Assembly: GCA_050012255.1 (NCBI GenBank)
Contig: JBEKHN010000030.1
Span: 1-12,702 of the forward strand
Length of the DNA: 12,702 nt
DNA from: Candidatus Bathyarchaeia archaeon
GTDB taxonomy: Archaea; Thermoproteota; Bathyarchaeia; Bathyarchaeales; Bathycorpusculaceae
Reading direction: 5' to 3'
The notes beneath the pieces were generated by a model. It searched no databases and had not been told where the DNA came from. It saw nothing but the letters and a program-made list of their open reading frames with translations. The position numbers were made by a program, and so were the translations under genes. Below are positions 306 to 12,702 of this stretch, in pieces. Position 1 is the stretch's first letter, and every line of letters begins with the position of its first letter.

Positions 306-2714
306 TCACAACTTTTCTCTTATATATTCAACCTGCATTTTCCAATTTGCGATTATGTTGTCCATGAATCTCACATTGCCGAATTCTGAAAAAGACAGCT
401 CAGGATTGCTCTTAAGCTCATCATCTTCCATTTGCTTCAGATACTTGAGGAACGTATGAGTACGTTCGAATCTTGCCTCCATGCGATCCTTCTTGTTCAG
501 TATAGAATCAGCGTTCAATCCTCTCCTCAGAGCTTTGAGGGTTTTTTCTTCACAGATCGGAGTATCCATAAATACCAAGTCAATGTAAGGAAAGCTGTGG
601 GCGAGTTCTTCAAGATAGTACAAACCAGTCGCAGTTATCTTGACATATTGGGCTGTCTTGAAACCTTCTTTGCTCTGGTTGTCGTATTCGACCAACCCGA
701 ATTGCGACAGTCTGCCCATGCAGTCTTCAATTGCCTTGCGGCTTATTCCGGCCACTTCAGCGTCTTCGATGATTTGGTTAATATCTATGAAACCCTTGTC
801 AAGTGCGATGAAGTAGTTCATCCTTTTGCTGAGATAAGCTAGAACTCTGAGGTGAAGAAAATAACTATACGTATGTTGAGGGTTTACGGAAAATACGTTC
901 ATTACACTACTGTGGGAGCTCGAGTAGTACTTGTAGTCTTCTAAAACTATGGATTTTATGATATGATGTAGAGGGATTTGATAATGCTTGTACTCTGGGG
1001 TTTCAGGTGGAAGGCTGGTCTCTACATCTATCATTTCTTCAACGTCTGTGTTCCCGGATGTCATGAAAGCGTTTATGAAGCGTAGCGCTTGTCTCATATC
1101 GCCCCCTGACACGTCATTTATGAATCGCAAAATCTCCTTTCCTACTCTTCGGCTCTCTCTTATAGAGTAGTTGATAATCGTGAAGAACATTTTGACAACA
1201 ATCCATTCACCCAGTGGGCTAACATCCAGCGATGCTCTTTCCCGTTCTTGCGTGGTTAGAAATTCCTGCGTATATTCGATTCTTTTCCGGATCAATTCCT
1301 CAAAGTTTGGTGATTCTATGTGAAACTTTGGCAAGTGATAGGCGTCCAACACGCCTGATCTAGTTGATTTGAAAAAAGACTCTTCACGAAGTGTGACAAA
1401 GGTAATAGTCTTGAACTTATTCGCAAAGTATTGAGAATATTCGAATACTCTTTCCTGATATTTTGGTGTAGTGTAACTATGTTGATCAACATTGTCTAGG
1501 ACGATTGCGATCGTATAGGATTGATATCTGAGCATGGAGAAGAACGCCAGCAGGCTTTCACCGTTAGCAGTGACAGAACTTACGCCAACAGCCTTCAGCG
1601 AGTCTTCCAACCTTTTCCTGTATCTCTCTTGATATTCATGAACAATACTGTCGAAGATGAAACCTTCAATCTCAGAAATATCAGGCGGGGAGACTCCGAA
1701 ATCAACATAGAACCATAGAATGTCTTTTCTGTCGGACATTACGACCTTGAAATAGTGATGGATAAAGGTTGTCTTGCCAGATCCCACACCTCCGAGAAGC
1801 ATGATGACCGAACCGAGCCCTCCTTCTTTTCTAAGAAATTCCCTGCATTTCTCAAAACTTAATTGGAACTCTCCGGCCTCTGTCTCCGTTTCTTTGAACC
1901 AGTTTATGTCGTAATGTTTTGCATAGTACGGCAACTTGTCAAAACTCGTACGAAGGACGTTGTCTGTGTTGCGAATCTGTTTTTGTCTTACGTAGCATTT
2001 CCTGAGGACATCAATCTGTGAATCCTTTGTTATGTCTTTAAAAATATAAGGAACAATCGTGGTCAAACGAGCCGCTAGCACATTCCAGCCAACGGTTGCA
2101 CTTTCGTTGTGAACAAAATCTAGGGGTCTCTTGAACTCTAACGAAACCAATTCTTTAGCCACGTTCTTTTTCAAGGAACCCCCAATCACCGCTGGCTTAC
2201 TCAAGATGCCAAAGAACAAAGAGAAATTGTTGACAATGTCTTCGACAGAAGAAAAGGCTACACAAGATCCTTCTCTCCACTTGCCAAATCGTCTAAAAGC
2301 TTCAAAAATAACAAATTGATGCCCATTACTGATAACCGCATATGTTGCTCCTATTTCTGTACAATACGCTTGAACTTGATTGATGGCTTCACTAATCTTT
2401 TTGTCTGTCGAGATAGCTCCATTTATCTTGTATCGTCTCTTCTTTAGAGCTTCAGAAATGATGAAAGAATAGCCGACTTTTTTTGCTTCAAGCACAAAAA
2501 CAGGTCGATCGTCAATCTTGAAAGTGTAGTCTATGAATCCTTTATGAATGTGTTCTTCTCTAGTTATGTCATCTTCAGTCCAGCCTAGGCAATCTTTAAA
2601 AATGGGATCTAAGATTTTCGCTCTTGAATCTGATTCCGACAAAGACAATTCTTCAAAAGTGCCCGCAAGCTTCTTGAAACACGCATATGCATTATCTATG
2701 TCAAGGGCAAGCAT
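306..2714 (-). CDS. Type I restriction HsdR-N-like PD-(D/E)xK nuclease fused to a P-loop/AAA+ ATPase and C-terminal winged helix (putative defence protein, 802 aa)
   Basis: N-terminus has the HSDR_N pattern: ESDSRAKILDPIF..LGW, FIDY...VLEAKK, QVQAYC, YAVISNG. Walker A is GGVGSGKT and Walker B is IAIVLDNVD. SGGDMRQAL resembles the Cdc6/RFC sensor-2 motif. C-terminal ISRKAIEDCMGRLSQFGLVE...VKITATG resembles a wHTH. Confidence 0.8.
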   Translation of the reverse strand: MLALDIDNAYACFKKLAGTFEELSLSESDSRAKILDPIFKDCLGWTEDDITREEHIHKGFIDYTFKIDDRPVFVLEAKKVGYSFIISEALKKRRYKINGAISTDKKISEAINQVQAYCTEIGATYAVISNGHQFVIFEAFRRFGKWREGSCVAFSSVEDIVNNFSLFFGILSKPAVIGGSLKKNVAKELVSLEFKRPLDFVHNESATVGWNVLAARLTTIVPYIFKDITKDSQIDVLRKCYVRQKQIRNTDNVLRTSFDKLPYYAKHYDINWFKETETEAGEFQLSFEKCREFLRKEGGLGSVIMLLGGVGSGKTTFIHHYFKVVMSDRKDILWFYVDFGVSPPDISEIEGFIFDSIVHEYQERYRKRLEDSLKAVGVSSVTANGESLLAFFSMLRYQSYTIAIVLDNVDQHSYTTPKYQERVFEYSQYFANKFKTITFVTLREESFFKSTRSGVLDAYHLPKFHIESPNFEELIRKRIEYTQEFLTTQERERASLDVSPLGEWIVVKMFFTIINYSIRESRRVGKEILRFINDVSGGDMRQALRFINAFMTSGNTDVEEMIDVETSLPPETPEYKHYQIPLHHIIKSIVLEDYKYYSSSHSSVMNVFSVNPQHTYSYFLHLRVLAYLSKRMNYFIALDKGFIDINQIIEDAEVAGISRKAIEDCMGRLSQFGLVEYDNQSKEGFKTAQYVKITATGLYYLEELAHSFPYIDLVFMDTPICEEKTLKALRRGLNADSILNKKDRMEARFERTHTFLKYLKQMEDDELKSNPELSFSEFGNVRFMDNIIANWKMQVEYIREKL

Positions 2715-2922
2715 AGGTTCAAGATATAATTAAACTGACTTATTACTTTTTCTTTTGGCGCGCACTCCGTCTTGGTCCTAACTTGTAGCCAGCAGGCAGA
2801 ACGTACCTGAGGTCGTTTATGACACTTGCAGGTTTGTGACGGCGGCCGGAAAAGACGTGGTGATAAGTTGAATGGAGAAAAAGGGTATGATCGTGCTTGG
2901 AGAATGGTTTCATAAATAAGAC

Positions 2923-3036
2923 CTAACGATATCTTCGCCTCAAATACTGCTGCCTTTTCAATTCTGCTTTCCTTTTTGAATGTCGGGCGAGATGCCTTCC
3001 TGAACTTCCTACCACTTTTATACCGCCTTTTCGCAT
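2923..3036 (-). CDS. Small basic peptide, 37 aa (MRKGGIKVVGSSGRHLARHSKRKAELKRQQYLRRRYR); below ORF-track cutoff
   Basis: Hand translation. Same strand and K/R-rich composition as the upstream operon, but no obvious RBS. Confidence 0.35.
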   Translation of the reverse strand: MRKGGIKVVGSSGRHLARHSKRKAELKRQQYLRRRYR

Positions 3037-3049
3037 AAGTTGGACTTTA

Positions 3050-3213
3050 GCAGCTCTTGGGCAACGACACAGGTATGAGCTGCCAAGGCCCGTTCCCCAC
3101 GCTCATTTTGCGAGGCGTATTTGACTTACTCACTGCCCCGCAGGGGAGATTGGAGATGTCAGGAAGAGCCTGCGGGGCATTTGCCGTTAGACTTGAGTTG
3201 GCGAGTCTGACGG
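3050..3213 (+). other. Cluster of stem-loops (possible structured RNA, terminator or origin element)
   Basis: Three stems: GCAGCTC 3050-3056/GAGCTGC 3077-3083; a perfect 11-bp TGCCCCGCAGG 3134-3144/CCTGCGGGGCA 3169-3179; and a 12-bp stem 3184-3195/3202-3213 with two G-U pairs on the + strand. Confidence 0.45.
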
Positions 3214-3220
3214 ACTCTAC

Positions 3221-3313
3221 TTAGAACTTTTGTGGGGCTTTACTTCGTCTTAGCGGGGCTAAACGCATCCCACCATAGTTCTTGCTTTTTGCTCCTTTCA
3301 GTCGTCTTGGCAT
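3221..3313 (-). CDS. Small basic peptide, 30 aa (MPRRLKGAKSKNYGGMRLAPLRRSKAPQKF); below ORF-track cutoff
   Basis: Strong RBS GAGGTGA (overlapping the upstream stop) 6 nt before the ATG; continues the operon. Confidence 0.55.
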   Translation of the reverse strand: MPRRLKGAKSKNYGGMRLAPLRRSKAPQKF

Positions 3314-3319
3314 TTGTTG

Positions 3320-3961
3320 TCACCTCTTTACCTTTCCGTTCAGTTCTACCGACTTTTGTCCCAGAATTACAATTGGCACCTTTTTGATCCCGAGATCCAT
3401 GGCTGTCTTCATTCTATGGCGAAAATCGTGAGAGGCATACGGCCCTTTCATTTCGCTGTAGTCCAGAAAGCCCACCGGCAGCACCTTTCCTGATAGCATT
3501 GCTTTCTTTGCGTATGCCAGGCTCTCTTGGTCGTATTGGTCTCTGCGCTGGACTACTGCCGGTATTTTAACGCTGACAGTTGAAGGAACTCTTCCGAGCC
3601 ATTCCTGCGGCGTTGCCCATTCTATCTTTGCGCTCAGCCCTTTTCTTATTGCCTGTCTCTTCAAGAGTTCAATGCTTGCTGCGCTTGCTCTCCATACCGC
3701 ACCGTCAATGCCTTTTGAGCTTTCTATGAAAGATCCGAGAGAAGGACTCTCGGCCCCGCCGACAGAAGTCTTGGCTATTACAGAGGCTTTAGGTTCTTTC
3801 TCAAGGGCTTTCAAAGCAGCAGGAGACATTACGGATTGAGCAGAACGTATGTTCCCTTTTGACTTCCATTTCTTAGGCGCGGGTCTCGAAGTTGCATCGT
3901 ATGTCAGAAAGTGTTGGCCGTCAGAATGTCTACTGCGCCATCTTCGTTTCATGAGACTCAA
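3320..3961 (-). CDS. Basic protein with C-terminal ParB/Srx-like domain (213 aa)
   Basis: C-terminal LPVGFLD...SHDFRHRMKTAMDLGIKKVPIVI resembles the ParB DGxHRxxAxxxLG..VPV motif. N-terminal WRSRHSDGQHF motif is shared with the upstream ORF. Start may be the ATG at 3952. Confidence 0.6.
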   Translation of the reverse strand: MSLMKRRWRSRHSDGQHFLTYDATSRPAPKKWKSKGNIRSAQSVMSPAALKALEKEPKASVIAKTSVGGAESPSLGSFIESSKGIDGAVWRASAASIELLKRQAIRKGLSAKIEWATPQEWLGRVPSTVSVKIPAVVQRRDQYDQESLAYAKKAMLSGKVLPVGFLDYSEMKGPYASHDFRHRMKTAMDLGIKKVPIVILGQKSVELNGKVKR

Positions 3962-3968
3962 TCCCTGT

Positions 3969-4958
3969 TCAGCTTAGTCTCCGGAGTGCTCTCTGCGCTC
4001 TTCTGAGCTGTCGTTTGACCTTCCTGAGAGCCGTGCTCGGGCTCTGCTCTTCTGGAGCTGTGTCTTCTGCTTCCTTAGAGCCAAATACACTGCTCTGGAA
4101 AGGCCTGCTTGAGGTCCGCCTTCTCCTTTCTGCCTCTGATCTGGTCATTGGCGCTGCTCTGGCTTTTGCTTCAGCTGCTCTTCTTTCTCTCAATGCTTTC
4201 CATTCTTCAGCTGTGTATCCGGCGAATGCGGAAGGTTCTGATGGTTTTGCAGCCCTAACCGGTTCAGCTCCTGCAACTCCTATCCTTTGGAGCCTTGAGG
4301 CTTCGGCCAGTATTTGCTCTTCTGTTTGCCCTTCCGTTGTTGGAGTCCTTGGTGCGCCTTCTCTTCTTGCTTTCTCAAGCTCGTAGACGTCTCTTGCTTC
4401 GCCAGGAATCCTTGCAATTCTTCCTGCTTCCCTTGCTGTTTTTACTGCTGCCTTTTCTGCGAATGCTATACCTCTCTTTGCGTAGCTAGGTATCTTCTCC
4501 ACACCCGCCTTAATTGCTGAGGCGAACTTGTGTGCTCCACCTGAAATGGCGTGGGCTATTTCTGAAAGGCTCGGGTCGACTATGACTATCTCGTCAACGT
4601 CTTCGGGGTCGTATTTCATCATGTTCTTGTGCGCTATGAAGAAAGCTTGGTGCCAATTTTGTGCCATTAGAGGGATCTCTTCTCTGGTGCCGTCTTTGAG
4701 CTTTATACCGATCATGAAGCCCTTCACGCCTTTTGCTTCCATGTCGCGTTCTGCCTTAACCGCTTCAAGCTCTAGAGAAGTAACATTTGCCTTGTCTCTA
4801 TGCGCCATTGTCTTCCAGTGTCTTGGACTCATCGGTGCCTTCTGCCCGACTTGAAAATGCTGGCCGTCTTTATGGCGTGAGAGCCATGTGCCTGGTTTGT
4901 AGGCTCTGTGGACGTTTGCGGACAAATATTGGCGTTTGGTTCTTGTTTGGGCTGTCAT
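3969..4958 (-). CDS. Hypothetical basic Ala/Arg/Lys-rich protein (329 aa), virus-like
   Basis: Long ORF with ATGA overlap to the upstream gene, an N-terminal WLSRHKDGQHF motif and a low-complexity C-terminal half. Confidence 0.8.
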   Translation of the reverse strand: MTAQTRTKRQYLSANVHRAYKPGTWLSRHKDGQHFQVGQKAPMSPRHWKTMAHRDKANVTSLELEAVKAERDMEAKGVKGFMIGIKLKDGTREEIPLMAQNWHQAFFIAHKNMMKYDPEDVDEIVIVDPSLSEIAHAISGGAHKFASAIKAGVEKIPSYAKRGIAFAEKAAVKTAREAGRIARIPGEARDVYELEKARREGAPRTPTTEGQTEEQILAEASRLQRIGVAGAEPVRAAKPSEPSAFAGYTAEEWKALRERRAAEAKARAAPMTRSEAERRRRTSSRPFQSSVFGSKEAEDTAPEEQSPSTALRKVKRQLRRAQRALRRLS

Positions 4959-5206
4959 TTGCGGAGCCCCCGGAGTGTTTTGGCTAAACGAGCAGCCTTA
5001 GCAATCGATCCGGACTTCTCAGCGACGCTTCTCAGCACACTTGACTTGATCCGAAGTCTGCCTTTAGCGCCTGATTCAAAGCTGGCCGATCCGTATTCTC
5101 TCCGGATGTATTTTCTCAGTCTGCATCTGCGCTTCTTTGGTATAGCCTTCTGGATCCATTTCTTCCTGTTAGTGCCGTACCTGTTTTGCCTGTGCTTCTC
5201 TCGCAT
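4955..5206 (-). CDS. Small highly basic protein (83 aa, MREKH...), resembling small basic phage proteins of the KKWIQKAI...ARLAxTL type
   Basis: ATG at 5206 lies 2 nt after the stop of the 5209-5391 ORF, so it is a better start than 5341. KKWIQKAI and AKAARLAKTLRGL recall a phage hypothetical family (from memory, unverified). Confidence 0.7.
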   Translation of the reverse strand: MREKHRQNRYGTNRKKWIQKAIPKKRRCRLRKYIRREYGSASFESGAKGRLRIKSSVLRSVAEKSGSIAKAARLAKTLRGLRK

Positions 5207-5208
5207 TT

Positions 5209-5391
5209 TCAAAAGCTCCCCCGGATTGCGTTGCGTCTCTTGCCGTGCATTAGCTTCGACTTGCGCCTGATCTTCGTGGTGCCCAGTTTCTCGAGACCTT
5301 TCCATGGGTTTTTGAACTTCTGTCCGTGCCTCTTTGCCCATTTGTAATCGCGTTGGTATTTCCGTTGTTTTCTCGGATTTTTGTAGACCAT
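5209..5391 (-). CDS. Small highly basic protein (60 aa), first gene of leftward operon
   Basis: GAGGT RBS at 5404-5400 and TATA box at 5436-5429 upstream; very K/R-rich. Confidence 0.75.
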   Translation of the reverse strand: MVYKNPRKQRKYQRDYKWAKRHGQKFKNPWKGLEKLGTTKIRRKSKLMHGKRRNAIRGSF

Positions 5392-5428
5392 TTTGTCTAA
5401 CCTCGGCCGCGGGCGACCACTAAACCGC

Positions 5429-5436
5429 TATAAAAA
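5429..5436 (-). promoter_or_regulatory. Archaeal TATA box (TTTTTATA) for leftward operon
   Basis: About 25 bp upstream of the GAGGT RBS of the 5391 ORF. Confidence 0.6.
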
Positions 5437-5592
5437 GCTTGTCTAACTGTGCTGCTAAACGGGTTTCAAAAATACAAAGGTTTAACCATCAGGACTTCGA
5501 TTAACCTTAAATTCCTTCAAATCGTTTGAATTTCAACCAGAAAAGAAAAATAACAATGAATTCAAACCGGGTATTCAGTGACCGTGAAAACG

Positions 5593-5632
5593 TTTATATA
5601 TGTGAACGTGATGGACGGTCGGTTTCGAGGTG
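5593..5632 (+). promoter_or_regulatory. Archaeal BRE/TATA (GAAAACG-TTTATATA) plus GAGGTG RBS for rightward operon
   Basis: TTTATATA at 5593-5600, GAGGTG at 5627-5632, in-frame TTG at 5638. Confidence 0.65.
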
Positions 5633-5637
5633 GTTTT

Positions 5638-5895
5638 TTGAAGACATATAAACGCAGGTCAGCGGAGCGGCTAGACCTCAGAAATTTCAAATTCCCGCCA
5701 AAACAAAAACAAGTGCACGACGGATTGCTGAAAGGCTTCTTGGTGGGTCTCAGACCGGGCACTGACGAATACAGAGAAGCGCACAGAAAGGCTGTCATGA
5801 TATGGCGTCTTGCGGGCAGAGACAAACGGAACCCAAATTACGGGAAACGCAAGTGGAAAGGAAAAAGAAAGGCTAAGACAGGTGAGAAGGCGTGA
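5638..5895 (+). CDS. Small basic hypothetical protein (85 aa; start revised from 5578 to TTG 5638)
   Basis: TATA and RBS positions favour the TTG at 5638; K/R-rich; GTGA overlap with the next gene. Confidence 0.7.
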   Translation: MKTYKRRSAERLDLRNFKFPPKQKQVHDGLLKGFLVGLRPGTDEYREAHRKAVMIWRLAGRDKRNPNYGKRKWKGKRKAKTGEKA

Positions 5896-6266
5896 GCCCT
5901 TACGAAAAAGTGCACGACAGGCCTGCTAACTACGAGCTTGCAAAGAGCATGTATGAGCTGATAGTTTGGATCAATGATGAAGGAACAGGCAATCTCAAGA
6001 AAGACAGAGCGCTGTGGACAATAAGAAAGGGCTTTTCTCCATCAACCGGCGAGAAACAATGGACACTTCTGAGAGACGCCGAAGCAATATCTGAGAACGG
6101 AGGACACTACATAAAGCTGCCTCTGTTCTACACGCTGCTGAAAGAAGCCTACAGAGCAATAAGACCTGATATCAAAGAAAGCACAAGCGAAACGCCTTTC
6201 ACAGATGCCATCAATAAGCGCCGGGAAACAATAAAGCGCAATCTAGAGAAGCTGGGGCATAAGTAA
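5892..6266 (+). CDS. Hypothetical protein (124 aa)
   Basis: GGTGAG RBS-like sequence, GTGA overlap upstream and TAATG overlap downstream. Confidence 0.75.
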   Translation: MSPYEKVHDRPANYELAKSMYELIVWINDEGTGNLKKDRALWTIRKGFSPSTGEKQWTLLRDAEAISENGGHYIKLPLFYTLLKEAYRAIRPDIKESTSETPFTDAINKRRETIKRNLEKLGHK

Positions 6267-6667
6267 TGACCACACAGACAATCCCATTATGGAGACCGAA
6301 GACTCTAACTGGACGACCGATAGGTGGAAAGCAAGGTAGATTCCGCGTTTTGGAGTTGACAGTTTACTTCGACTACGTCGCTGGCAAAGGAGAAAGCCAG
6401 GACAGAGAATTCGAGTTCACGTTGAGAATTCCGTTGACGAAGAGAAACAGCCGAAGGAACATGTTGTTCTGGGAATTCGTAGCCGCAACCAAAATGGAAG
6501 CAGTGGGAATCCACATTCAAGGCGAAAACTGGGACGAGGGAATCGTTGGATACCGATACACCGGGAGGACAAATAGTTACAAACCGCGATACATTTGCTT
6601 AAACAAAAAGACGAACTGGTGCATGCCCAAGTCCGGCGGTTGGGGCACTCTGTGGTGGCCATGGTGA
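6266..6667 (+). CDS. Hypothetical protein (133 aa), aromatic/Trp-rich
   Basis: Translationally coupled within the operon; no recognisable family. Confidence 0.75.
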   Translation: MTTQTIPLWRPKTLTGRPIGGKQGRFRVLELTVYFDYVAGKGESQDREFEFTLRIPLTKRNSRRNMLFWEFVAATKMEAVGIHIQGENWDEGIVGYRYTGRTNSYKPRYICLNKKTNWCMPKSGGWGTLWWPW

Positions 6668-6981
6668 TAACCGTCGACATAGATTCTCCCAGCAAAGCAA
6701 AACTGTTGTCAACATACCGCAAAGCGCTGAGCTACGGAAGAACAAAGGTGACAAAAACGGCACACGGAGGTTTTCATCTCAGGATCGACAGCGACATTGA
6801 AGACCCACTGGAGATAATCCGGATCCGCAGACTTCTCGGAGACGACCCAAAGCGCATAGAGCACGACAAAATCCTCATACTTCTTGGACATCCTGAGCTG
6901 GCAAACAGACTCTTTGAAGCCAAGAAAGTGAACGGGAAGTACGTAAAAGAAAGACCGTTTGAAATGGAGGGAGACAAATGA
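6661..6981 (+). CDS. Minimal archaeo-eukaryotic primase (AEP/PrimPol)-like protein (~106 aa)
   Basis: ITVDID (motif I hhhDxD), KTAHGGFHL (motif II sxH), LLGDD (candidate motif III). ATG 6661/GTG 6664 overlaps the upstream stop. Confidence 0.55.
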   Translation: MVITVDIDSPSKAKLLSTYRKALSYGRTKVTKTAHGGFHLRIDSDIEDPLEIIRIRRLLGDDPKRIEHDKILILLGHPELANRLFEAKKVNGKYVKERPFEMEGDK

Positions 6982-7175
6982 AAGATGAGAACAAAATGCC
7001 GATAGTGCCGCACGAAATAATCATAGTGGGCCCAGAACAGGATCTTCAAAAGCTCGTAATGAAGGCCAACGATGCGCTTGAAGGTTGCATGCAGACCTAC
7101 GTAAACAACGTGCAGCTCTACGAGTCAACCAAGGGATGGATAGTCATGATCTGGTATAAACTCGTCGGACACTGA
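6978..7175 (+). CDS. Hypothetical protein (65 aa)
   Basis: GGAGG RBS and ATGA overlap with the upstream stop. Confidence 0.7.
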   Translation: MKDENKMPIVPHEIIIVGPEQDLQKLVMKANDALEGCMQTYVNNVQLYESTKGWIVMIWYKLVGH

Positions 7176-7186
7176 GGCGAAGATCT

Positions 7187-7363
7187 ATGACATACTCCGA
7201 GATCAGGCTTGCGAAGAGACTGATAGCCACGGCCGGAATGAAATGTTACTGCGGATCTACCGACATTTGGAGAGCAGGCTTCGACGTGACACCGGAAGGA
7301 CGAAGACAGCGCTACCAGTGCAAGAAATGCGGCCGCTATTTATTCAAAAACAAAGAGGGTTAG
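7187..7363 (+). CDS. Zn-ribbon protein, IS1 InsA-like (58 aa); below ORF-track cutoff
   Basis: Hand translation MTYSEIRLAKRLIATAGMKCYCGSTDIWRAGFDVTPEGRRQRYQCKKCGRYLFKNKEG: CxCGS...G...QRYxCxxCGR. GAGG RBS; fills the operon gap. Confidence 0.8.
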   Translation: MTYSEIRLAKRLIATAGMKCYCGSTDIWRAGFDVTPEGRRQRYQCKKCGRYLFKNKEG

Positions 7364-7367
7364 AGAC

Positions 7368-7568
7368 ATGAAACGGAAAATGATGATGGACCCCTACCAC
7401 AAAAGGCACAGAAAGAACGTCCAAGATTTCAGAAGCAGGCATAAAGGTAAAGCGTACGTCAAGCTCGACGGACAATACCAGTGGATCGACAGAAGAAAAG
7501 TGAAGATACGCATAATTCAAACTGCTGAGCGAATAAAGAAATCCGAGCGCTTCGGGCTCGCGAAATGA
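7368..7568 (+). CDS. Small basic hypothetical protein (66 aa)
   Basis: GAGGG RBS, follows the previous stop by 4 nt, K/R-rich. Confidence 0.7.
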   Translation: MKRKMMMDPYHKRHRKNVQDFRSRHKGKAYVKLDGQYQWIDRRKVKIRIIQTAERIKKSERFGLAK

Positions 7569-7610
7569 TCATAGAAATGGAGGAAGTAGAGAAGGAACTC
7601 AGCCCGATGA

Positions 7611-7856
7611 CTAAATCCCGTTCGGCTTCGCGGTCTCTTTTTTCTTTGTGAAATATCGCTGGAGCAATGCCCGGTATTTTTCAGGATTTAGGCCACGCCA
7701 GAGATAACTCCGGACTAATCGCGGGCTTATGTCCAATTTCTGTGCAATTTCCTCAACACTGGCACCTTTTGTGTGCATTTGACAGACACGCAATATTTTG
7801 CCTTTTTTCTTACGTTTGGTCTTAGGTTCTTCAATCTTGGCGGGGCACACTTTCAC
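7611..7856 (-). CDS. Helix-turn-helix DNA-binding protein (start probably GTG 7856 or 7850 rather than 7952)
   Basis: ASVEEIAQKLDISPRLVRSYLWR is an HTH. A minus-strand TTTATATA at 7917-7910 lies inside the longer ORF, favouring a later start. Confidence 0.65.
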   Translation of the reverse strand: MKVCPAKIEEPKTKRKKKGKILRVCQMHTKGASVEEIAQKLDISPRLVRSYLWRGLNPEKYRALLQRYFTKKKETAKPNGI

Positions 7857-7909
7857 TTTCCAATTATATCCCCCCCTGCTTTTTGAAGCGCCAGCCCCAT
7901 GCAAACGGC

Positions 7910-7983
7910 TATATAAAGCATTAGCCTCGCGGCCAATAATGGTGAGTTGCAACCGCGATTCATCAAAGCATTTAATTTATAAG
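7910..7983. promoter_or_regulatory. Divergent TATA boxes for the HTH gene (-) and the three-gene operon (+)
   Basis: TTTATATA on - strand at 7917-7910; TTTATAAG on + strand at 7976-7983, about 24 bp before ATG 8007 (leaderless spacing). Confidence 0.55.
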
Positions 7984-8006
7984 CGCAATTGCAGAATGTG
8001 ACAGTG

Positions 8007-8579
8007 ATGAAGATGGCTAAGAATACAGAAGATGACTTGATAAAGGCAGCGATTCAACGAGCTATAGATATCACCAAAGACATCGAGGAACCATATCGTT
8101 TAAAGGCTTTTGAAATTGTGTTTTCGAAGCTCTTGGCCCCCATCGCTGAACACAAAACAGAGACGCTTGGGACGACCAGAAGCAAAGGCGGAACTGCAAA
8201 TTTGGGAGCTAGAATCGAAGAGTTTGCAACCAAATGCGCTCTATCCGTGGAACAACTAAAGAACATCTTTGACTTTAAGGAGGATGGACCACTTTTTACT
8301 GTTCCTCTTCAGGGAAGTCATGCTGAAAAGCAGGTTCTGGTTTCCAGATACTTGTTGACTGCATATCATGAAGCATACGGAAAAGAATGGGCAAGCCTGA
8401 ATCAAATCCTAGCAGAACATGGTGTAGGTTCACTTGAGAACTTGGCCTTTAATCTCAAGAAACACTCAGAAATCTTTAGACAGAGAGGAAGAAAGAAGGC
8501 AAGTGAATACAAACTGGCCGATGCGGCAGAGCGCGAGACTTTTCACATGATTCATGAGCTTGGTACTGGCGGGACCTAA
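8007..8579 (+). CDS. Hypothetical protein with probable C-terminal winged helix (start ATG 8007 or 8013)
   Basis: Helical N-terminus (EPYRLKAFEIVFSKLL); C-terminal SLNQILAEHGV...NLAFNLKK...FRQRGRKKASEYKL is wHTH-like. Confidence 0.7.
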   Translation: MKMAKNTEDDLIKAAIQRAIDITKDIEEPYRLKAFEIVFSKLLAPIAEHKTETLGTTRSKGGTANLGARIEEFATKCALSVEQLKNIFDFKEDGPLFTVPLQGSHAEKQVLVSRYLLTAYHEAYGKEWASLNQILAEHGVGSLENLAFNLKKHSEIFRQRGRKKASEYKLADAAERETFHMIHELGTGGT

Positions 8580-8603
8580 TACTCGCTAACGTAGTAAGGT
8601 GTC

Positions 8604-9020
8604 ATGATGTCAGAAGAAAAATCTCGGTTCAGAATCAAGAAAGGAGAAACAGAGATAGAATATGAAGGCCAATCGAAGGAAGTCAATGAGCGATACAGAG
8701 AGGCTTTTGAATGGTTGAAGTCTTTGCGTCCTGAGGATACTGAGGAAAAGCAGTCAGAGGAGAAGGGAACAGGCCTAGAGGAAAAGCGTGGCGGAGCGAG
8801 AAAAGAACTGTTTTCGCCCAAAATCGATGAATTAATCAAAGGGAATTATTTCAAACTACCAGACAAGAGAAAAGTCTCTGATGTGATGAAAACCCTGATG
8901 GAAAAGGGACTGCCGACGAGCGGTAAAGATGAGGCAGTATTGAATTCCTTGAAACGAAGGCTTGGCAAGACTCTGAAAGGAACAAAAGAAGGAAAAGAAT
9001 GGGTGTTTTGGACTGAATAA
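8604..9020 (+). CDS. Hypothetical protein: N-terminal FRIKKGETEIEYEG module, linker and winged helix (138 aa)
   Basis: AAGGTG RBS; C-terminal IDELIKGNYFKL..KVSDVMKTLMEKG..VLNSLKR..KEGKEWVFW is wHTH-like. Confidence 0.75.
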   Translation: MMSEEKSRFRIKKGETEIEYEGQSKEVNERYREAFEWLKSLRPEDTEEKQSEEKGTGLEEKRGGARKELFSPKIDELIKGNYFKLPDKRKVSDVMKTLMEKGLPTSGKDEAVLNSLKRRLGKTLKGTKEGKEWVFWTE

Positions 9021-9022
9021 GA

Positions 9023-10000
9023 ATGTCTATTGAGCTTCCCAACCTTATTGGAAAGGAAAAGCAGCATTACGATTCACTCGAAGAACTTTATGCGTATTCT
9101 TGCGGAAGAAAGAAAGACGAGGCGCAGCTTTGCAGCCAAATAAATGAAACCATTGATGATTGGGACAAAATGATGGGAGGCCGAAGTAATCTCAAGACCT
9201 CGGTTGCTCCTTATTCTCAAGCATTGCTCAAGAGTGACCACCGTAAAGCTCGAGAACTCTACTTCTTCCTAAGCCCAGTCTTTTTCTACATTCACGTACT
9301 CCTTGAAATGGAAAGAAAGGCTTGGAGAAATGCTATGACTTCGAGCGGCATATTTTGTGAAAGAATCGTCAGAAACTTGCTACAAGAGGTTGACAGAATA
9401 AACTCGTCAAAGATCTGGGAAGAATTGTCAAAGGACCCGAAGTTTGATAACCGCAATGGTAGACTTCGAAAGGAATTAGAAGGCAAAAAGATCGACCAAA
9501 CTGACACCTTATGCAGCTTGTTGAAGAGCATTTATTTCACTAGAACTCACACAGGACCGCATGATGTTCCACCTCCAGAGCCCATTCAAGCGGATTTATC
9601 TGCAAGATTATGCCTGCCAGCTTACGTAAAGTATCTTGAAACTCTCATAGAGCTCGGCAATGACCTAACCAGTGATTTCAACAGTTATGTCTCCTTCTTC
9701 TACAGTCTAACTAGGACAAACGTGGCTTTGATATTTGGAAAGGAGGAAGTTCGGAAACCACCCAAAGAGGTTATTTTCGAAATCTACATGCAAGGGTTCT
9801 TCAAACTAGGAAAGACGTTTGGTGAGACGAAGAAAAAATTCCGAGAAGCAGGCTACGACCCTGGTGATGCTCGACTTGCTAATGAACTGGAAAAGCTATC
9901 CAAAGGTAATAAGGCGTTTCTAACGCGACGAGGAAGACGGGGATTTTACGTCTATCATGAACGCTATCCACCTGACGACTCTTTCAAGATGGCAATATGA
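9023..10000 (+). CDS. Putative HEPN-domain protein with C-terminal winged helix (325 aa)
   Basis: AMTSSGIFCERIV (HEPN N-terminal E helix) and R174-x5-H180 (RTHTGPH). C-terminal QGFFKLGKTFGE...LTRRGRRGFYVY is wHTH-like. Confidence 0.55.
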   Translation: MSIELPNLIGKEKQHYDSLEELYAYSCGRKKDEAQLCSQINETIDDWDKMMGGRSNLKTSVAPYSQALLKSDHRKARELYFFLSPVFFYIHVLLEMERKAWRNAMTSSGIFCERIVRNLLQEVDRINSSKIWEELSKDPKFDNRNGRLRKELEGKKIDQTDTLCSLLKSIYFTRTHTGPHDVPPPEPIQADLSARLCLPAYVKYLETLIELGNDLTSDFNSYVSFFYSLTRTNVALIFGKEEVRKPPKEVIFEIYMQGFFKLGKTFGETKKKFREAGYDPGDARLANELEKLSKGNKAFLTRRGRRGFYVYHERYPPDDSFKMAI

Positions 10001-10118
10001 ACTGAGCACTCGTCCTGCTCTTTGGGAAGCACACAAAGCAACTAGAATGGGTGACAATATCTCTTAGTAGCAACGTTTTTTAATGGCCTTGCCTGGGCCA
10101 GCCCGCGAGGTAGTTTGA

Positions 10119-11135
10119 ATGAAGACAAGAACGGCGAAGTTATTTTTGACCGACTATGGTTCTTTCCTGGGCCGGGCCGACGGATGCCTAACGGTAAGGC
10201 ATAGAGACAAAAAGATAGAGAAATATCCTCTGTTTGAAAACGAGATCTCAGAGATTCAACTTAATATGGGCAACTCCGCATCTGTTACTGCTCTGACTAC
10301 GGCTGCAATGTGGGGCATTGATTGTGTTTTCCTTACTTCGCGCGGAAATCCTGTTGCTTATATGAAAAGCCTATCCGATGATTCGCATGTTAAGACCCGG
10401 ATCTCGCAATATGAGGCCATAAAGAACGGCAAAGGATTTTCAATCGCCAAAGAAATTGTGTTGGCTAAGATCGCAGGACAAAACCAGGTCTTGAGAAAAT
10501 ACGGCCTGAGACAGCACGATATGATCCAAATCAAAAAGAAGGTAGCTGAGGCCAAATCAAAGAACGCACTGCTGACAATTGAAGGCCACTGTGCCGAGAG
10601 CTATTTCAACCAGATCTTCAAGTTGATGCCCAAACCTATGAAGATCGAGCGGAGAAGGACTTTCAAGGCTTACGACGGCACGAATAACGTATTCAATCTC
10701 GGCTATGAAATTCTCCGTTGGAAGGTATATCGCGCAATTATCAGATCGAAACTTGAGCCGTTTTTGGGATTCCTCCACAGCGAGCAGTTCTCAAAGCCGT
10801 CTTTGGTGTGCGACGTAATGGAGATCTATAGATTTTTGATTGACGACTTTCTGATAGACTATTGCAAGAAACTCCGGAAGAAGGATTTCGTACGCCAAAA
10901 CCAGGAATACTCATCAAACAAGAAGGGGCAGCGAGAGTTTCTCAGGAAGGAGGCTGCCAAGGACATGATAAGCAAGCTGAACTCCTTCTTTGAGTCAATG
11001 GTCGAAATACCGCGAATCAAGCACGGAAACAGGCAGACAATAGAAACTCTGATCAACGAAGAGGCATTGCTACTGGCCAGATATTTGCGGAGCGAAACTA
11101 ATTCATGGGTTCCAAGATGTGCCCGATTAGTGTGA
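10119..11135 (+). CDS. cas1: Cas1 endonuclease/integrase, stand-alone (possibly casposase-like), 338 aa
   Basis: Beta-rich N-domain (LFLTDYGSFLG, IDCVFLTSRG); RISQY; catalytic E155 (TIEG), H220 (LGFLH) and E235 (SLVCDVMEIYR); NNVFNLGY. GAGGT RBS at 10107-10111 and T-rich TATA-like sequence at 10076-10084. Confidence 0.95.
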   Translation: MKTRTAKLFLTDYGSFLGRADGCLTVRHRDKKIEKYPLFENEISEIQLNMGNSASVTALTTAAMWGIDCVFLTSRGNPVAYMKSLSDDSHVKTRISQYEAIKNGKGFSIAKEIVLAKIAGQNQVLRKYGLRQHDMIQIKKKVAEAKSKNALLTIEGHCAESYFNQIFKLMPKPMKIERRRTFKAYDGTNNVFNLGYEILRWKVYRAIIRSKLEPFLGFLHSEQFSKPSLVCDVMEIYRFLIDDFLIDYCKKLRKKDFVRQNQEYSSNKKGQREFLRKEAAKDMISKLNSFFESMVEIPRIKHGNRQTIETLINEEALLLARYLRSETNSWVPRCARLV

Positions 11136-11295
11136 TTATTTTTGGTAAAATTAATCGCACTGTCTGGCGGATTCGATCAATGTATGTGGATATTTTTTGT
11201 AAAATTAAATACACTAACTGAACCCGTGATCCATTTATTTTCCCGGAGCGATTTTAGATTAGTGCGTTTATTTTTAGTAAAGTTCATATCACTGT
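11125..11295. repeat. Three degenerate palindromic ~33-39-bp repeats directly after cas1
   Basis: 33-bp cores: 11129-11161 AGTGTGATTATTTTTGGTAAAATTAATCGCACT, 11183-11215 TATGTGGATATTTTTTGTAAAATTAAATACACT, 11261-11293 AGTGCGTTTATTTTTAGTAAAGTTCATATCACT. R1 and R3 match at 32/39 over 11125-11163 vs 11257-11295; the R1 and R2 cores match at 25/33. Confidence 0.8.
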
Positions 11296-11313
11296 TCTCC
11301 CACGACAAACCTC

Positions 11314-11829
11314 ATGCCCCCTATAATGCCGCTCAAGACGCAGAAAGCAAACATCAGAAGAATGATCCGAAAAGTCAATCCTGAAATGGAAGACGTAGAT
11401 CTCGGGTTCCTTCAGAAGGTCCATTATCCTGAGAACATTCGGATTGCCGAGGATCAGCTCGGTATTACTCTGCGACGTCCCAAAGAAGAGAAGCCTCGAA
11501 AGGGCCCTCGAAGATCGCTTGACGTCTACTACAATCGTGATGGAACCCTATGTGCAGATGCGGTGGTCGTGGTCCAGAAACACGCGCCGTTGGACAAAAG
11601 GGCAAAAGTGCTCAAGTACTACAACCACCCGTTTACATATTCATATGGCCGGATACAACTCACTGTCCCTGAAGAGCTGATTAACACGCAAGCCAGGGTT
11701 CATCTAGAGTTCCCAAACGCTCCGGAGATCAAAACCAAGAAGAGACGGGGCAGGAACCAACTCAAACACTATCACATTGAGGAGGGTGGACACTTCGGAA
11801 AGAAGGCAAAACAATGGAGAAGATTTTGA
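11314..11829 (+). CDS. Hypothetical basic protein (171 aa); YGRIQLTVPEELI segment is reminiscent of AbrB/DUF2080-like swapped-hairpin DNA-binding domains
   Basis: Open frame of 171 codons in the same orientation as cas1; the domain guess is weak. Confidence 0.65.
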   Translation: MPPIMPLKTQKANIRRMIRKVNPEMEDVDLGFLQKVHYPENIRIAEDQLGITLRRPKEEKPRKGPRRSLDVYYNRDGTLCADAVVVVQKHAPLDKRAKVLKYYNHPFTYSYGRIQLTVPEELINTQARVHLEFPNAPEIKTKKRRGRNQLKHYHIEEGGHFGKKAKQWRRF

Positions 11830-11950
11830 TCCATTATTTTTCTCGCCGTTATATCTACTATCAATGGATCCTAAAGATAATCGGATTCAAATAACAACCG
11901 CCGCGCCGGAACAAGTCCGCAGGCTTATGGTGGGTCGGTGTGCTAATTAG

Positions 11951-11986: not shown

Positions 11987-12472
11987 CTAGGTCGCCCTGA
12001 CGACACTCAGGACTTCACCAACGAAGCCCAACATTGTTGAGCCTAAGCCTGTTGTTCTGTATCGTGTATCCTTGCCTTTTCCTGTTTTCTCTATGAACCC
12101 GCCTGCCTGCAGTAGATCCACATGGTGTTTTAGAGATGCAGGATTCAAGCGAAGTGTCAACATTATATTGGTGAATGAACGCTCTGCCAAACAATAATTC
12201 AGCATTCTTATTCGGATGGGGCTAGACATAATCGTAATATATTCACCCAGTTTCTGTAGCACTTCGCCGTCATATTCCTCTATTTCTGAGAATTCAAGAG
12301 CTTTCTTACTATCTCTTTGACTACTTCTTTCGCTGTTTGGCGCACATAGGGGTCGCTTAGGATTCGCTTCAGCGTTCTTGGCAAAACAGACTTGGGTCTC
12401 CGCTTTGAAGACTTTCGCTGTTTCATGCTTTAGACATCCAATGCTTCTTTCCATTTCCTTTTCACCTTGCAT
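11987..12472 (-). CDS. ArsR-family winged-helix transcriptional regulator
   Basis: SSPIRIRML...SFTNIM..L.LNPASLKHHVDLLQAGGFIEK...YRTTGLG is a typical archaeal ArsR/HTH_20 pattern. The N-terminal extension and start are uncertain. Confidence 0.8.
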   Translation of the reverse strand: MQGEKEMERSIGCLKHETAKVFKAETQVCFAKNAEANPKRPLCAPNSERSSQRDSKKALEFSEIEEYDGEVLQKLGEYITIMSSPIRIRMLNYCLAERSFTNIMLTLRLNPASLKHHVDLLQAGGFIEKTGKGKDTRYRTTGLGSTMLGFVGEVLSVVRAT

Positions 12473-12524: not shown

Positions 12525-12552
12525 TGGTTAATTCACTTTTAGGAATTAACCA
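12525..12552. promoter_or_regulatory. Palindromic operator TGGTTAATTC-N8-GAATTAACCA upstream of the ArsR-like gene
   Basis: Perfect 10-bp inverted repeat next to a TATA-like sequence (TATAAA on - strand, 12515-12510). Confidence 0.6.
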
Positions 12553-12702
12553 GAGTTAATGAACCATCTGATAAGGCGTGCGCCAGCCTGTAACTTCAAA
12601 AAACGGCAAGGCGCACAACTGCTTCGCTCTGCCTTCCTTCCGCTCGAGGCTTTTTCCCCTGTCATTCCAGATCTTCCTGACGGTATCCCAAGCCACCCCA
12701 AG

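Follow-up and report, generated by a model that had tools for sequence, protein, structure and literature searches.

A probable polymerase-less casposon of about 13 kb in a Bathyarchaeia genome from peat

The window (the whole stretch of DNA analysed here, 12,702 bp) is one entire contig, JBEKHN010000030.1 (C30), of a 2.35-Mb Candidatus Bathyarchaeia genome with 38 contigs (G000), and the element copy it holds originates from a peat metagenome. It carries a solo Cas1 gene and a compact block of small virus-like genes, and is likely the interior of a ~13.0-kb transposon mobilised by this Cas1, a polymerase-less 'family 5' casposon integrated in the Bathyarchaeia chromosome. In what follows, C and a number denotes contigs of the host genome, G and a number genomes, and L and a number related loci or contigs.

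Cas1 and the ends of the element

The principal features are:

1-14: inner imperfect continuation of the left terminal inverted repeat (TIR), 12 of its 14 bases matching the reverse complement of 12686-12699
6661-6981, plus strand: mini-AEP, a primase-like protein of 106 aa and candidate replication initiator; invariant DxD, GxH and GDD motifs, and fold matches
7611-7952, minus strand: 113-aa helix-turn-helix (HTH) protein, matching several HTH families (E 7e-5 to 1e-2), a regular companion of this Cas1 subclade
10119-11135, plus strand: solo Cas1, predicted integrase (casposase); PF01867 E 4.3e-51; TIGR00287 186 bits, residues 8-327 of 338
12686-12699: inner imperfect continuation of the right TIR, pairing with 1-14

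The 20 open reading frames (ORFs) of the window were scanned with Pfam, NCBIfam and PHROGs at E <= 0.01, which is the scope of the family searches of the window given below, and 14 of them are without any Pfam family. Cas1 is the sole recognisable recombinase, as the initial annotation had stated: PF01867 and TIGR00287 identify it, and no other integrase, transposase or recombinase family, tyrosine integrases included, was found in these ORFs. Neither a tRNA gene nor a housekeeping gene was found in the contig. The protein possesses E155, H220 and D232, which are invariant in all 23 full-length members of its clade. TIGR00287 covers almost the full length, so an extra C-terminal domain is absent. 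The C-terminal HTH that is a feature of the studied family 2 casposases is thus lacking, and an HTH protein is instead encoded by a separate gene near Cas1 in all five loci whose Cas1 is at least 63% identical (within 5 kb in L017, L051 and L052, and also in L076).

Beyond the window, the host genome holds three further copies of Cas1 that belong to the same clade (49-57% identity). The copy in C28 (9903-10946) is intact and has different neighbours, with no TIR found; that in C1 (at 236.8 kb) is truncated, and that in C8 (at 23.0 kb) is a C-terminal fragment within a decayed 93-nt inverted pair (C8:20853-25354).

No family B DNA polymerase (PolB) was found in the 20 window ORFs, in agreement with the initial annotation, and the three PF00136 (PolB) genes of the host lie on contigs other than that of the window. 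PolB families are also absent from the 61 ORFs of 12 TIR-bounded units, 11 of these around Cas1, from the 28 largest non-Cas1 ORFs of 77 related loci, and from the ORFs of L017 and L076. A search with PF03175 matched nothing in the window or the related elements, but its control was equally silent, so that this result is uninformative alone.

The perfect portions of the TIRs sit just beyond the window ends. A metagenome contig of 12,948 bp (L071) matches the window at 100% identity and adds 123 bp at each end, the added ends forming a perfect inverted terminal repeat (ITR); the terminal direct overlap looked for as a mark of circularity is absent from both the window contig and L071. Host contig C23 terminates in the same 123-nt repeat (100% identity), preceded by 23 further repeat bases and, before these, by GGGGTAAAGTTTTATCC, and C12 opens with an inverted copy of the outer 32 nt of the repeat followed by the same 17-mer in direct orientation. 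Since these contig ends extend the 123-nt ITR, the perfect repeat is 146 nt long, and the element measures ~12,994 bp (~13.0 kb), that is, 12,702 bp plus two 146-nt TIRs. The span 2923-11870 initially given for the element was too narrow, the element taking in the entire window and a terminal repeat of ~146 nt on either side.

The 17-bp direct repeat GGGGTAAAGTTTTATCC that abuts both TIRs is the consensus promoter word of the host. In a genome of the same genus, a single contig carries both the C23 and the C12 flank, 4 kb from each other, and the two are thus chromosomal neighbours around a variable spot. The window element was probably mobile recently. The possibility that the TATA-like word forms part of the TIR was considered and rejected: its asymmetric centre is direct, not inverted, at both ends in every case examined, so the word is a duplication.

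Related elements and flanking duplications

The nearest Cas1 relative (67%) lies on L017, a whole 17.5-kb contig ending in 170-nt TIRs (98%) that are alike in pattern to those of the window element, and relatives of the window's zinc-ribbon and HTH genes there abut cas1. L017 further encodes an AIPR abortive-infection-type protein, an HNH protein, and an MvaI/BcnI-type restriction enzyme with an N4/N6 methylase (364-2187, 13710-17049), and these extra genes are defence cargo, as in classical casposons.

The TIRs of L076, part of a 24-kb metagenome contig, are 142 nt long (95%) and enclose Cas1 (68%), the HTH gene and the mini-AEP (67%), together with relatives of the genes at 6978-7175, 6266-6667 and 5578-5895, of the VP2-like gene and 329-aa protein, and of the N-terminus of the 213-aa protein, all of which are described below. 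Host genes (a GPN-type ATPase and MoCF_biosynth) stand directly outside these TIRs, L076 being embedded in a chromosome. A 158-aa protein encoded at L076 371-847 on the minus strand matches DNA polymerase beta thumb / DUF6932 (E 3e-17); it is of a small nucleotidyltransferase type and is not a family B polymerase. In L072, Cas1 is found with a relative of the 329-aa protein and a zinc ribbon, and in L063 a mini-AEP lies beside Cas1 inside perfect TIRs of 271 nt. The co-occurrence of this Cas1 clade with the virus-like module, proposed initially as a check, is seen: the two stand together inside the TIRs on L076. The module is dispensable for the clade, the mini-AEP gene being present in only 3 of 26 well-bounded elements.

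Cas1 matches at E <= 1e-20 occur in 44 of the 201 genomes of the order, with up to eight in one genome, of which many are truncated or interrupted by stops; the weakest matches (27-32% identity) are probably ordinary CRISPR Cas1. The clade was surveyed over 77 Cas1 loci from named genomes, 74 of which have record titles of Bathyarchaeota or Bathyarchaeia. The same Cas1 clade was also seen in records titled Candidatus Levybacteria (L133) and Candidatus Sulfotelmatobacter (L173); L133 lies on a 5.6-kb contig, so mis-binning is likely.

A TIR pair encloses Cas1 in 34 of the 77 loci, with TIR lengths of 26-271 nt over the survey (the first 12 pairs span 29-271 nt). Of these 34 pairs, 23 are abutted by perfect, AT-rich and TATA-like direct repeats 12-17 bp long. 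With the window included, the duplications are most often 15 bp long (11 cases), the others being 14 bp (5), 13 bp (3), 17 bp (2), 12 bp (2) and 16 bp (1), and their composition is 78% A+T; GATTAAAATTTAATC and GTTAAATTTTAACC are examples. In three of the 11 pairs outside the 23, the contig stops at the TIRs and no flanks are available. As a control, 13 of 14 other inverted pairs (>= 60 nt) of the host genome were examined, and none has a direct repeat above 8 bp. At L067 a partial empty site can be seen, in that a related genome shows, at the position of the element, the left flank with one TATA-like word and CCCAAACCC. The inner sizes of the TIR-bounded elements are mostly 2.8-8.7 kb, and Cas1 is the only family common to all 26 well-bounded elements.

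Such ends would also be expected of a non-integrated replicon, either a linear plasmid or a linear virus genome, that carries inverted terminal repeats and was binned together with the genome, and contigs of three assemblies do stop within the repeat (12,702, 12,948 and 12,984 bp). That L017 is a whole contig ending in TIRs, and that the GC content of the window is 45.5%, compared with ~48% for the large contigs of the host genome, also agree with this explanation. However, de Bruijn assemblers break at inverted repeats regardless, C23 (27.6 kb) spans chromosomal sequence into the whole 146-nt repeat, and C12 (71.6 kb) begins inside the repeat. L076 and 23 other copies, moreover, lie between host sequences with flanking duplications. 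In Logan contigs from a single run, which is probably that of the source sample, the repeat is ~2.4x as deep as the flank, a ratio that two arms would be expected to give, although such depth is a poor measure; a joint across the repeats was not seen in these contigs, which break at repeats. A free replicon is accordingly regarded as very improbable, and integration of the Cas1 transposon in the chromosome is preferred.

Comparison with known Cas1 systems

Salgado et al. (2022, Front Microbiol, PMC9755687) proposed the 'family 5 casposases' from six hot-spring metagenome sequences adjoining subtype I-A Cas1. In the portions of that paper available, the active site is described as conserved, the C-terminal HTH as absent, and DNA polymerase B as absent in all but one, with TIRs on some contigs and variable hypothetical proteins as the remaining genes, and the authors read the family as non-self-replicative transposons. 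Target site duplications (TSDs), a primase and Bathyarchaeia are unmentioned in its main text, 'target site' occurring only in a reference title. By motif look-up, KPSLVCD, a word invariant in the window's clade, was found in five of the sequences in its Supplementary Table 3, two of these being Cas1_938 (family 5) and Cas1_125 (Bathyarchaeia label); Cas1_1200 (family 5) also contains the word. Judged by eye, the sequences printed there match the clade consensus (A4) over long stretches. On this motif and the visible match, the window is therefore filed under family 5, and its Cas1 clade is a putative member of the family 5 casposases, assigned by motif and eye comparison and not by alignment or tree.

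As far as that paper's available text goes, family 5 and the window are alike in having an archaeal solo Cas1 with its catalytic residues kept, no C-terminal HTH, and PolB mostly absent, whereas the window element differs in its peat source, its size of ~13 kb and its virus-like module. Casposons without PolB were proposed there in 2022, and the window is a large member of a known but poorly described kind. A literature search found no other paper on such elements in Bathyarchaeia.

According to the accessible text of Krupovic et al. (2014, PMC4046053), casposon families 1-4 combine Cas1 with TIRs measuring 25-602 nt, TSDs whose median length is 15 bp, and a PolB, and a 2023 review (PMC9939771, available in part) gives the polymerase as conserved in all identified casposons. 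The window clade is similar to these families in having a Cas1-family integrase as sole recombinase, TIRs, ~15-bp duplications and a site preference, and the defence-type cargo of families 1-4 (restriction-modification and HNH genes, in the portions of those sources available) has its counterpart in L017. In contrast, families 1-4 as described there possess PolB, a C-terminal HTH on the studied casposases, and targets at the ends of tRNA or aEF-2 genes; the window clade lacks PolB, encodes the HTH protein in a gene of its own, and has TATA-like promoter words as its targets. Set against the definition of Krupovic (2014), the integrase, the TIRs and a duplication of ~14-15 bp are thus present, but PolB and the C-terminal HTH are not. 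The earlier suggestion of a non-canonical casposon is supported by the TIRs, the 17-bp repeat, the intact sole Cas1, L076 and the clade signature; its qualifier 'non-autonomous' does not fit because Cas1 is intact, and its alternative of a virus is not supported (see below).

The Cas1 of CRISPR adaptation in A. fulgidus (4n06) belongs to the same fold family, is of the same length and has the same catalytic residues, and it is the best PDB sequence match (E 7.6e-17). It might be proposed that the window Cas1 is a passenger or a leftover of CRISPR adaptation, the block having moved otherwise or being immobile. Generic CRISPR Cas1 models do score best for it, the C-terminal HTH of studied casposases is lacking, and a weak Csa3-like winged-helix gene lies close by. 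However, neither cas2 nor cas4 was found beside the window Cas1 (Pfam, NCBIfam, neighbouring ORFs and PADLOC) or in the genome scans, and k-mer scans of the whole 2.35-Mb genome revealed no CRISPR array, although arrays can be lost from metagenome-assembled genomes. All three Cas1 copies of the genome are solo, and unlike CRISPR Cas1 the clade lies within units bounded by TIRs and TSDs, in multiple copies with decayed remnants. The presence of Cas1 in every well-bounded element and the modal duplication of 15 bp, which is the length reported for casposases in the available text of PMC4046053 and PMC9939771, also oppose this explanation, and it is scarcely credible when set beside a transposon mobilised by its own Cas1.

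Several observations nevertheless weigh against the reading as a family 5 casposon. By sequence, the window Cas1 is equidistant from CRISPR Cas1 (4n06) and from the M. mazei casposase (6opm, E 1.1e-15). The path from C23 through the TIR, C30 and the second TIR to C12 was inferred from shared contig ends, not from spanning reads. A clean empty site for the window copy was not obtained in the five same-genus genomes searched, because the C23-C12 interval is rearranged in relatives, with a 200-bp small gene inverted in G009 and a different 4 kb in G007; of the two things the initial annotation had wanted from related genomes, the element ends were thus found, as 146-nt TIRs, but the empty site was not. 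GGGGTAAAGTTTTATCC is also the commonest promoter word of the genome, with ~40 near-copies, so that two copies of it by chance or design are less surprising than two of a random word would be. In the survey, 43 of the 77 loci are without a TIR pair, many of them on short contigs. At L060 (3030-7358, G144:C5) an inverted pair of 142 nt (90%) is accompanied by a TATA-like direct repeat, perfect over 16 bp, and contains no Cas1. Transposition, target preference and primase activity of the element are, finally, predictions from sequence.

The genes inside the L060 pair are ordinary-looking (glycosyltransferase, CBS, GH130 and GH127-like), and L060 may represent either a relative without Cas1 that carries cargo only and is mobilised in trans, or host genes between two relic ends.

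Virus-like module, cargo and proposed movement

The remaining features of the window are:

306-2714, minus strand: 802-aa protein with an N-terminal restriction-enzyme-like (HSDR_N) region and a P-loop NTPase
3320-3961, minus strand: 213-aa basic protein, last gene of the leftward operon; no Pfam, NCBIfam, PHROGs or PADLOC family
3969-4958, minus strand: 329-aa conserved orphan; seven metagenome relatives at 45-58% identity on contigs of 1.5-12.5 kb (alignment A1)
4955-5341, minus strand: 128-aa very basic protein whose C-terminal 70 residues match the fusellovirus VP2 (DNA-binding) family
5578-5895, plus strand: 105-aa basic orphan opening the rightward operon; L076 relative at 46%; no Pfam, NCBIfam or PHROGs family
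5892-6266, plus strand: 124-aa orphan ORF with a 4-base overlap with the preceding gene; no Pfam, NCBIfam or PHROGs family
6266-6667, plus strand: 133-aa orphan, 52% identical to L076 1367-1774
6978-7175, plus strand: 65-aa orphan, 54% identical to L076 850-1020
7187-7363, plus strand: 58-aa zinc-ribbon protein (NF050000 E 4.2e-4); relatives beside Cas1 in L017, also on L072 and L074
7368-7568, plus strand: 66-aa basic orphan, ORF only; no Pfam, NCBIfam or PHROGs family
7989-10000, plus strand: three cargo genes (196, 138 and 325 aa) from the HTH gene to cas1; no Pfam, NCBIfam, PHROGs or PADLOC family
11131-11298: three degenerate 36-nt direct repeats (family D1), 72-78% identical, at spacings of 54 and 78, beginning at the cas1 stop codon
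11314-11829, plus strand: 171-aa basic orphan ORF; no Pfam, NCBIfam, PHROGs or PADLOC family
11987-12472, minus strand: 161-aa winged-helix protein; HTH_45 E 2.3e-5; Sso10a family E 1.8e-7, below cut-off; weak Csa3-like match E 4.6e-5

The module consists of two divergent gene sets, running from 5341 to 3320 on the minus strand and from 5578 to 7568 on the plus strand, with stop/start overlaps of 4 bases or 1 base at 4955-4958, 5892-5895, 6266 and 6978-6981. Its coding strands are A-rich, the AT skew being -0.23 to -0.52 over 3001-5500 and +0.26 to +0.34 over 5501-7500, and the initial description of compact divergent operons with overlapping stop and start codons and purine-rich strands is in accordance with this.

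Labels given earlier to single genes fared differently. The AEP-like label of 6661-6981 is supported by the invariant motifs and the fold matches set out below, and the zinc-ribbon label of 7187-7363 finds weak support in NF050000 (E value above), but no library supports a ParB-like protein at 3320-3961. A ParB HTH domain (E 1e-11) does occur in the product of a similarly placed L076 gene. Partial relatives of the 213-aa protein occur in L075 (45%, residues 96-205) and, for the N-terminus, in L076. Relatives of the 329-aa protein on L076 and L072 are each accompanied by a Cas1 of the same clade; its AF2 model is too poor for searching (pLDDT 52), and the Atlas offered no usable match. These two adjacent proteins share an N-terminal word (RSRHSDGQHF in 3320-3961 and SRHKDGQHF in 3969-4958), and a similar RHGQKF is present in an alternative frame at 5209-5391. 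The VP2-like match of the 128-aa protein is to PF25632 (E 8.1e-7, 29.8 bits against a cut-off of 27) and phrog_15706 (E 4.2e-9); the gene is unique in the host genome and has an L076 relative at 34%.

In the mini-AEP, residues D6, D8, G37, H39, G60 and D61 are invariant across 14 sequences, and the AF2 model is confident (pLDDT 91.7). The VIA-wide structure list for this model is headed by AEP enzymes, with Z scores up to 6.2 over 92-95 aligned residues (LigD polymerase domain 6.2, human primase 5.6, Tetrahymena primase 5.1 and CAPP prim-pol 5.0). Foldseek found nothing in the PDB at E <= 0.001, and neither Pfam nor a profile search of PDB sequences gave a match. The BFVD matches of the model (E 2.9e-6 to 6.7e-3) are to small, uncharacterised proteins encoded by filamentous, spherical and icosahedral viruses of archaea, among them lipothrixviruses and a haloarchaeal icosahedral virus. 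In the relatives there is a family (A5) of ~150-220-aa proteins with an invariant Asp, a following D/E, and TLR..K; its three subgroups are joined by hhalign at 92.6% and 72.3% probability, and its members have no Pfam match and no PDB sequence match. No link between A5 and the mini-AEP was found by hhalign (probability 0.2% or less), so the likeness in motif order is a lead only.

Because of the VP2-family match and the likeness of the mini-AEP to archaeal virus proteins, the module looks archaeal-virus- or plasmid-like. This leads to the explanation that the window is a provirus or virus satellite, its module making or borrowing virions and its Cas1 replacing the usual tyrosine integrase. 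The 802-aa protein matches a PHROG (phrog_14719, E 3.2e-87), the nearest Atlas clusters mostly carry viral labels, and a spindle-shaped provirus of Bathyarchaeia with VP1-3 (Huangdivirus) has been published (Duan et al., PMC10541130). In the available text of that paper, however, VP2 is a DNA-binding and not a shell protein; this protein and the host class are what Huangdivirus shares with the window, and its VP1 and VP3 capsid proteins, AAA+ ATPase and tyrosine integrase were not found in the window. The 20 ORFs include no recognisable virion gene, whether for a capsid, a packaging ATPase or another component; for a VP1/VP3-type capsid there is no Pfam or PHROG match, a systematic search for hydrophobic hairpins not having been made. 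The DNA of 2900-8000 has no match in the phage collection. In IMG/VR, scans with the single Cas1 and 329-aa proteins and with alignment A1 found no relatives, and the mini-AEP alignment found two weak partial matches only (E 2e-4 and 4e-4). Most relatives, furthermore, are elements of 3-7 kb with Cas1 and a few small genes. A virus using Cas1 as its integrase, as had initially been suggested, is not borne out by the virion gene and IMG/VR searches, and the provirus or satellite explanation is considered improbable beside the polymerase-less casposon.

To the cargo of this casposon belong the nuclease-NTPase, the three genes at 7989-10000 and, from the archaeal virus- or plasmid-like module, the genes for the VP2-like, 329-aa and 213-aa proteins. 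Besides its PHROG, the 802-aa nuclease-NTPase has an HSDR_N match just under cut-off (E 2.2e-5) and weak STAND/ATPase matches; it has no PADLOC defence family, is absent from the related elements L076 and L017, and is probably a defence-type gene. The three genes at 7989-10000 are also missing at that position in L017 and L076, where the HTH gene abuts cas1. The 36-nt repeats after cas1 could be protein-binding sites or a relic.

As to how the element moves, Cas1 would bind the pyrimidine-rich TIR ends and join them at positions staggered by ~15 bp in an AT-rich, quasi-palindromic promoter word of the TATA/BRE type, and gap repair would then duplicate this word. Copying would rely on host polymerases, which may be primed by the element's mini-AEP, and in most relatives the ~150-220-aa D-x-D/E protein may take the place of the latter. 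The HTH protein may serve as a DNA-binding helper, standing where the studied casposases carry a fused HTH.

The CRISPR spacer-integration machinery is regarded as descended from casposons. In the sole paper describing it, family 5 branches beside CRISPR Cas1, and its mode of movement is almost undescribed. The window and its relatives give a testable anatomy, with exact ends, a ~15-bp duplication, and as landing site an AT-rich, palindrome-like promoter word, which is formally similar to the CRISPR repeat next to the leader. A small primase-like gene is present where other casposons have the polymerase, and polymerase-less Cas1 elements can reach 13-17 kb, carrying defence-like and virus-like genes. 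The chief interest of the window element lies in its well-defined ends and its promoter-word target.

A bolder proposal, which we consider unlikely, is that family-5 casposons are promoter-seeking transposons that duplicate the host's BRE/TATA word and whose relics shaped or spread uniform promoters, the window copy being a fusion of a transposon with a virus- or plasmid-type replicon self-primed by its 106-aa minimal primase. On such a promoter-seeking reading Cas1 would recognise and duplicate the quasi-palindromic promoter word, so that each insertion would have a promoter directed into the element and another directed out of it. Repeats of the CCCAAACCC type form the ends of many elements and also flank ordinary promoters of these genomes, which suggests that insertions and solo-TIR relics have shaped or spread the unusually uniform promoters of Bathyarchaeia.

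Some further repeats were seen around the promoter words. In G000, GGGGTAAAGTTTTATCC is usually flanked genome-wide by inverted GGGTTTGGG / CCCAAACCC repeats (e.g., C16:40133, C28:6496 and C8:26628), and these repeats also make up the outermost bases of the TIRs in many elements of other genomes. The last ~100 bases of the window resemble C19 (85%) and C10 (91%) of the host genome, where a small ORF running inward from the right end (12546-12701, minus strand) has DNA paralogues at 85-91% (C19:24757-24852 and C10:24680-24722). In C19, and in C1 at 237.9 kb beside the truncated Cas1, the paralogue of this ORF is followed by a TIR-like stretch adjoining a promoter word, and these stretches are possibly solo ends of related elements.

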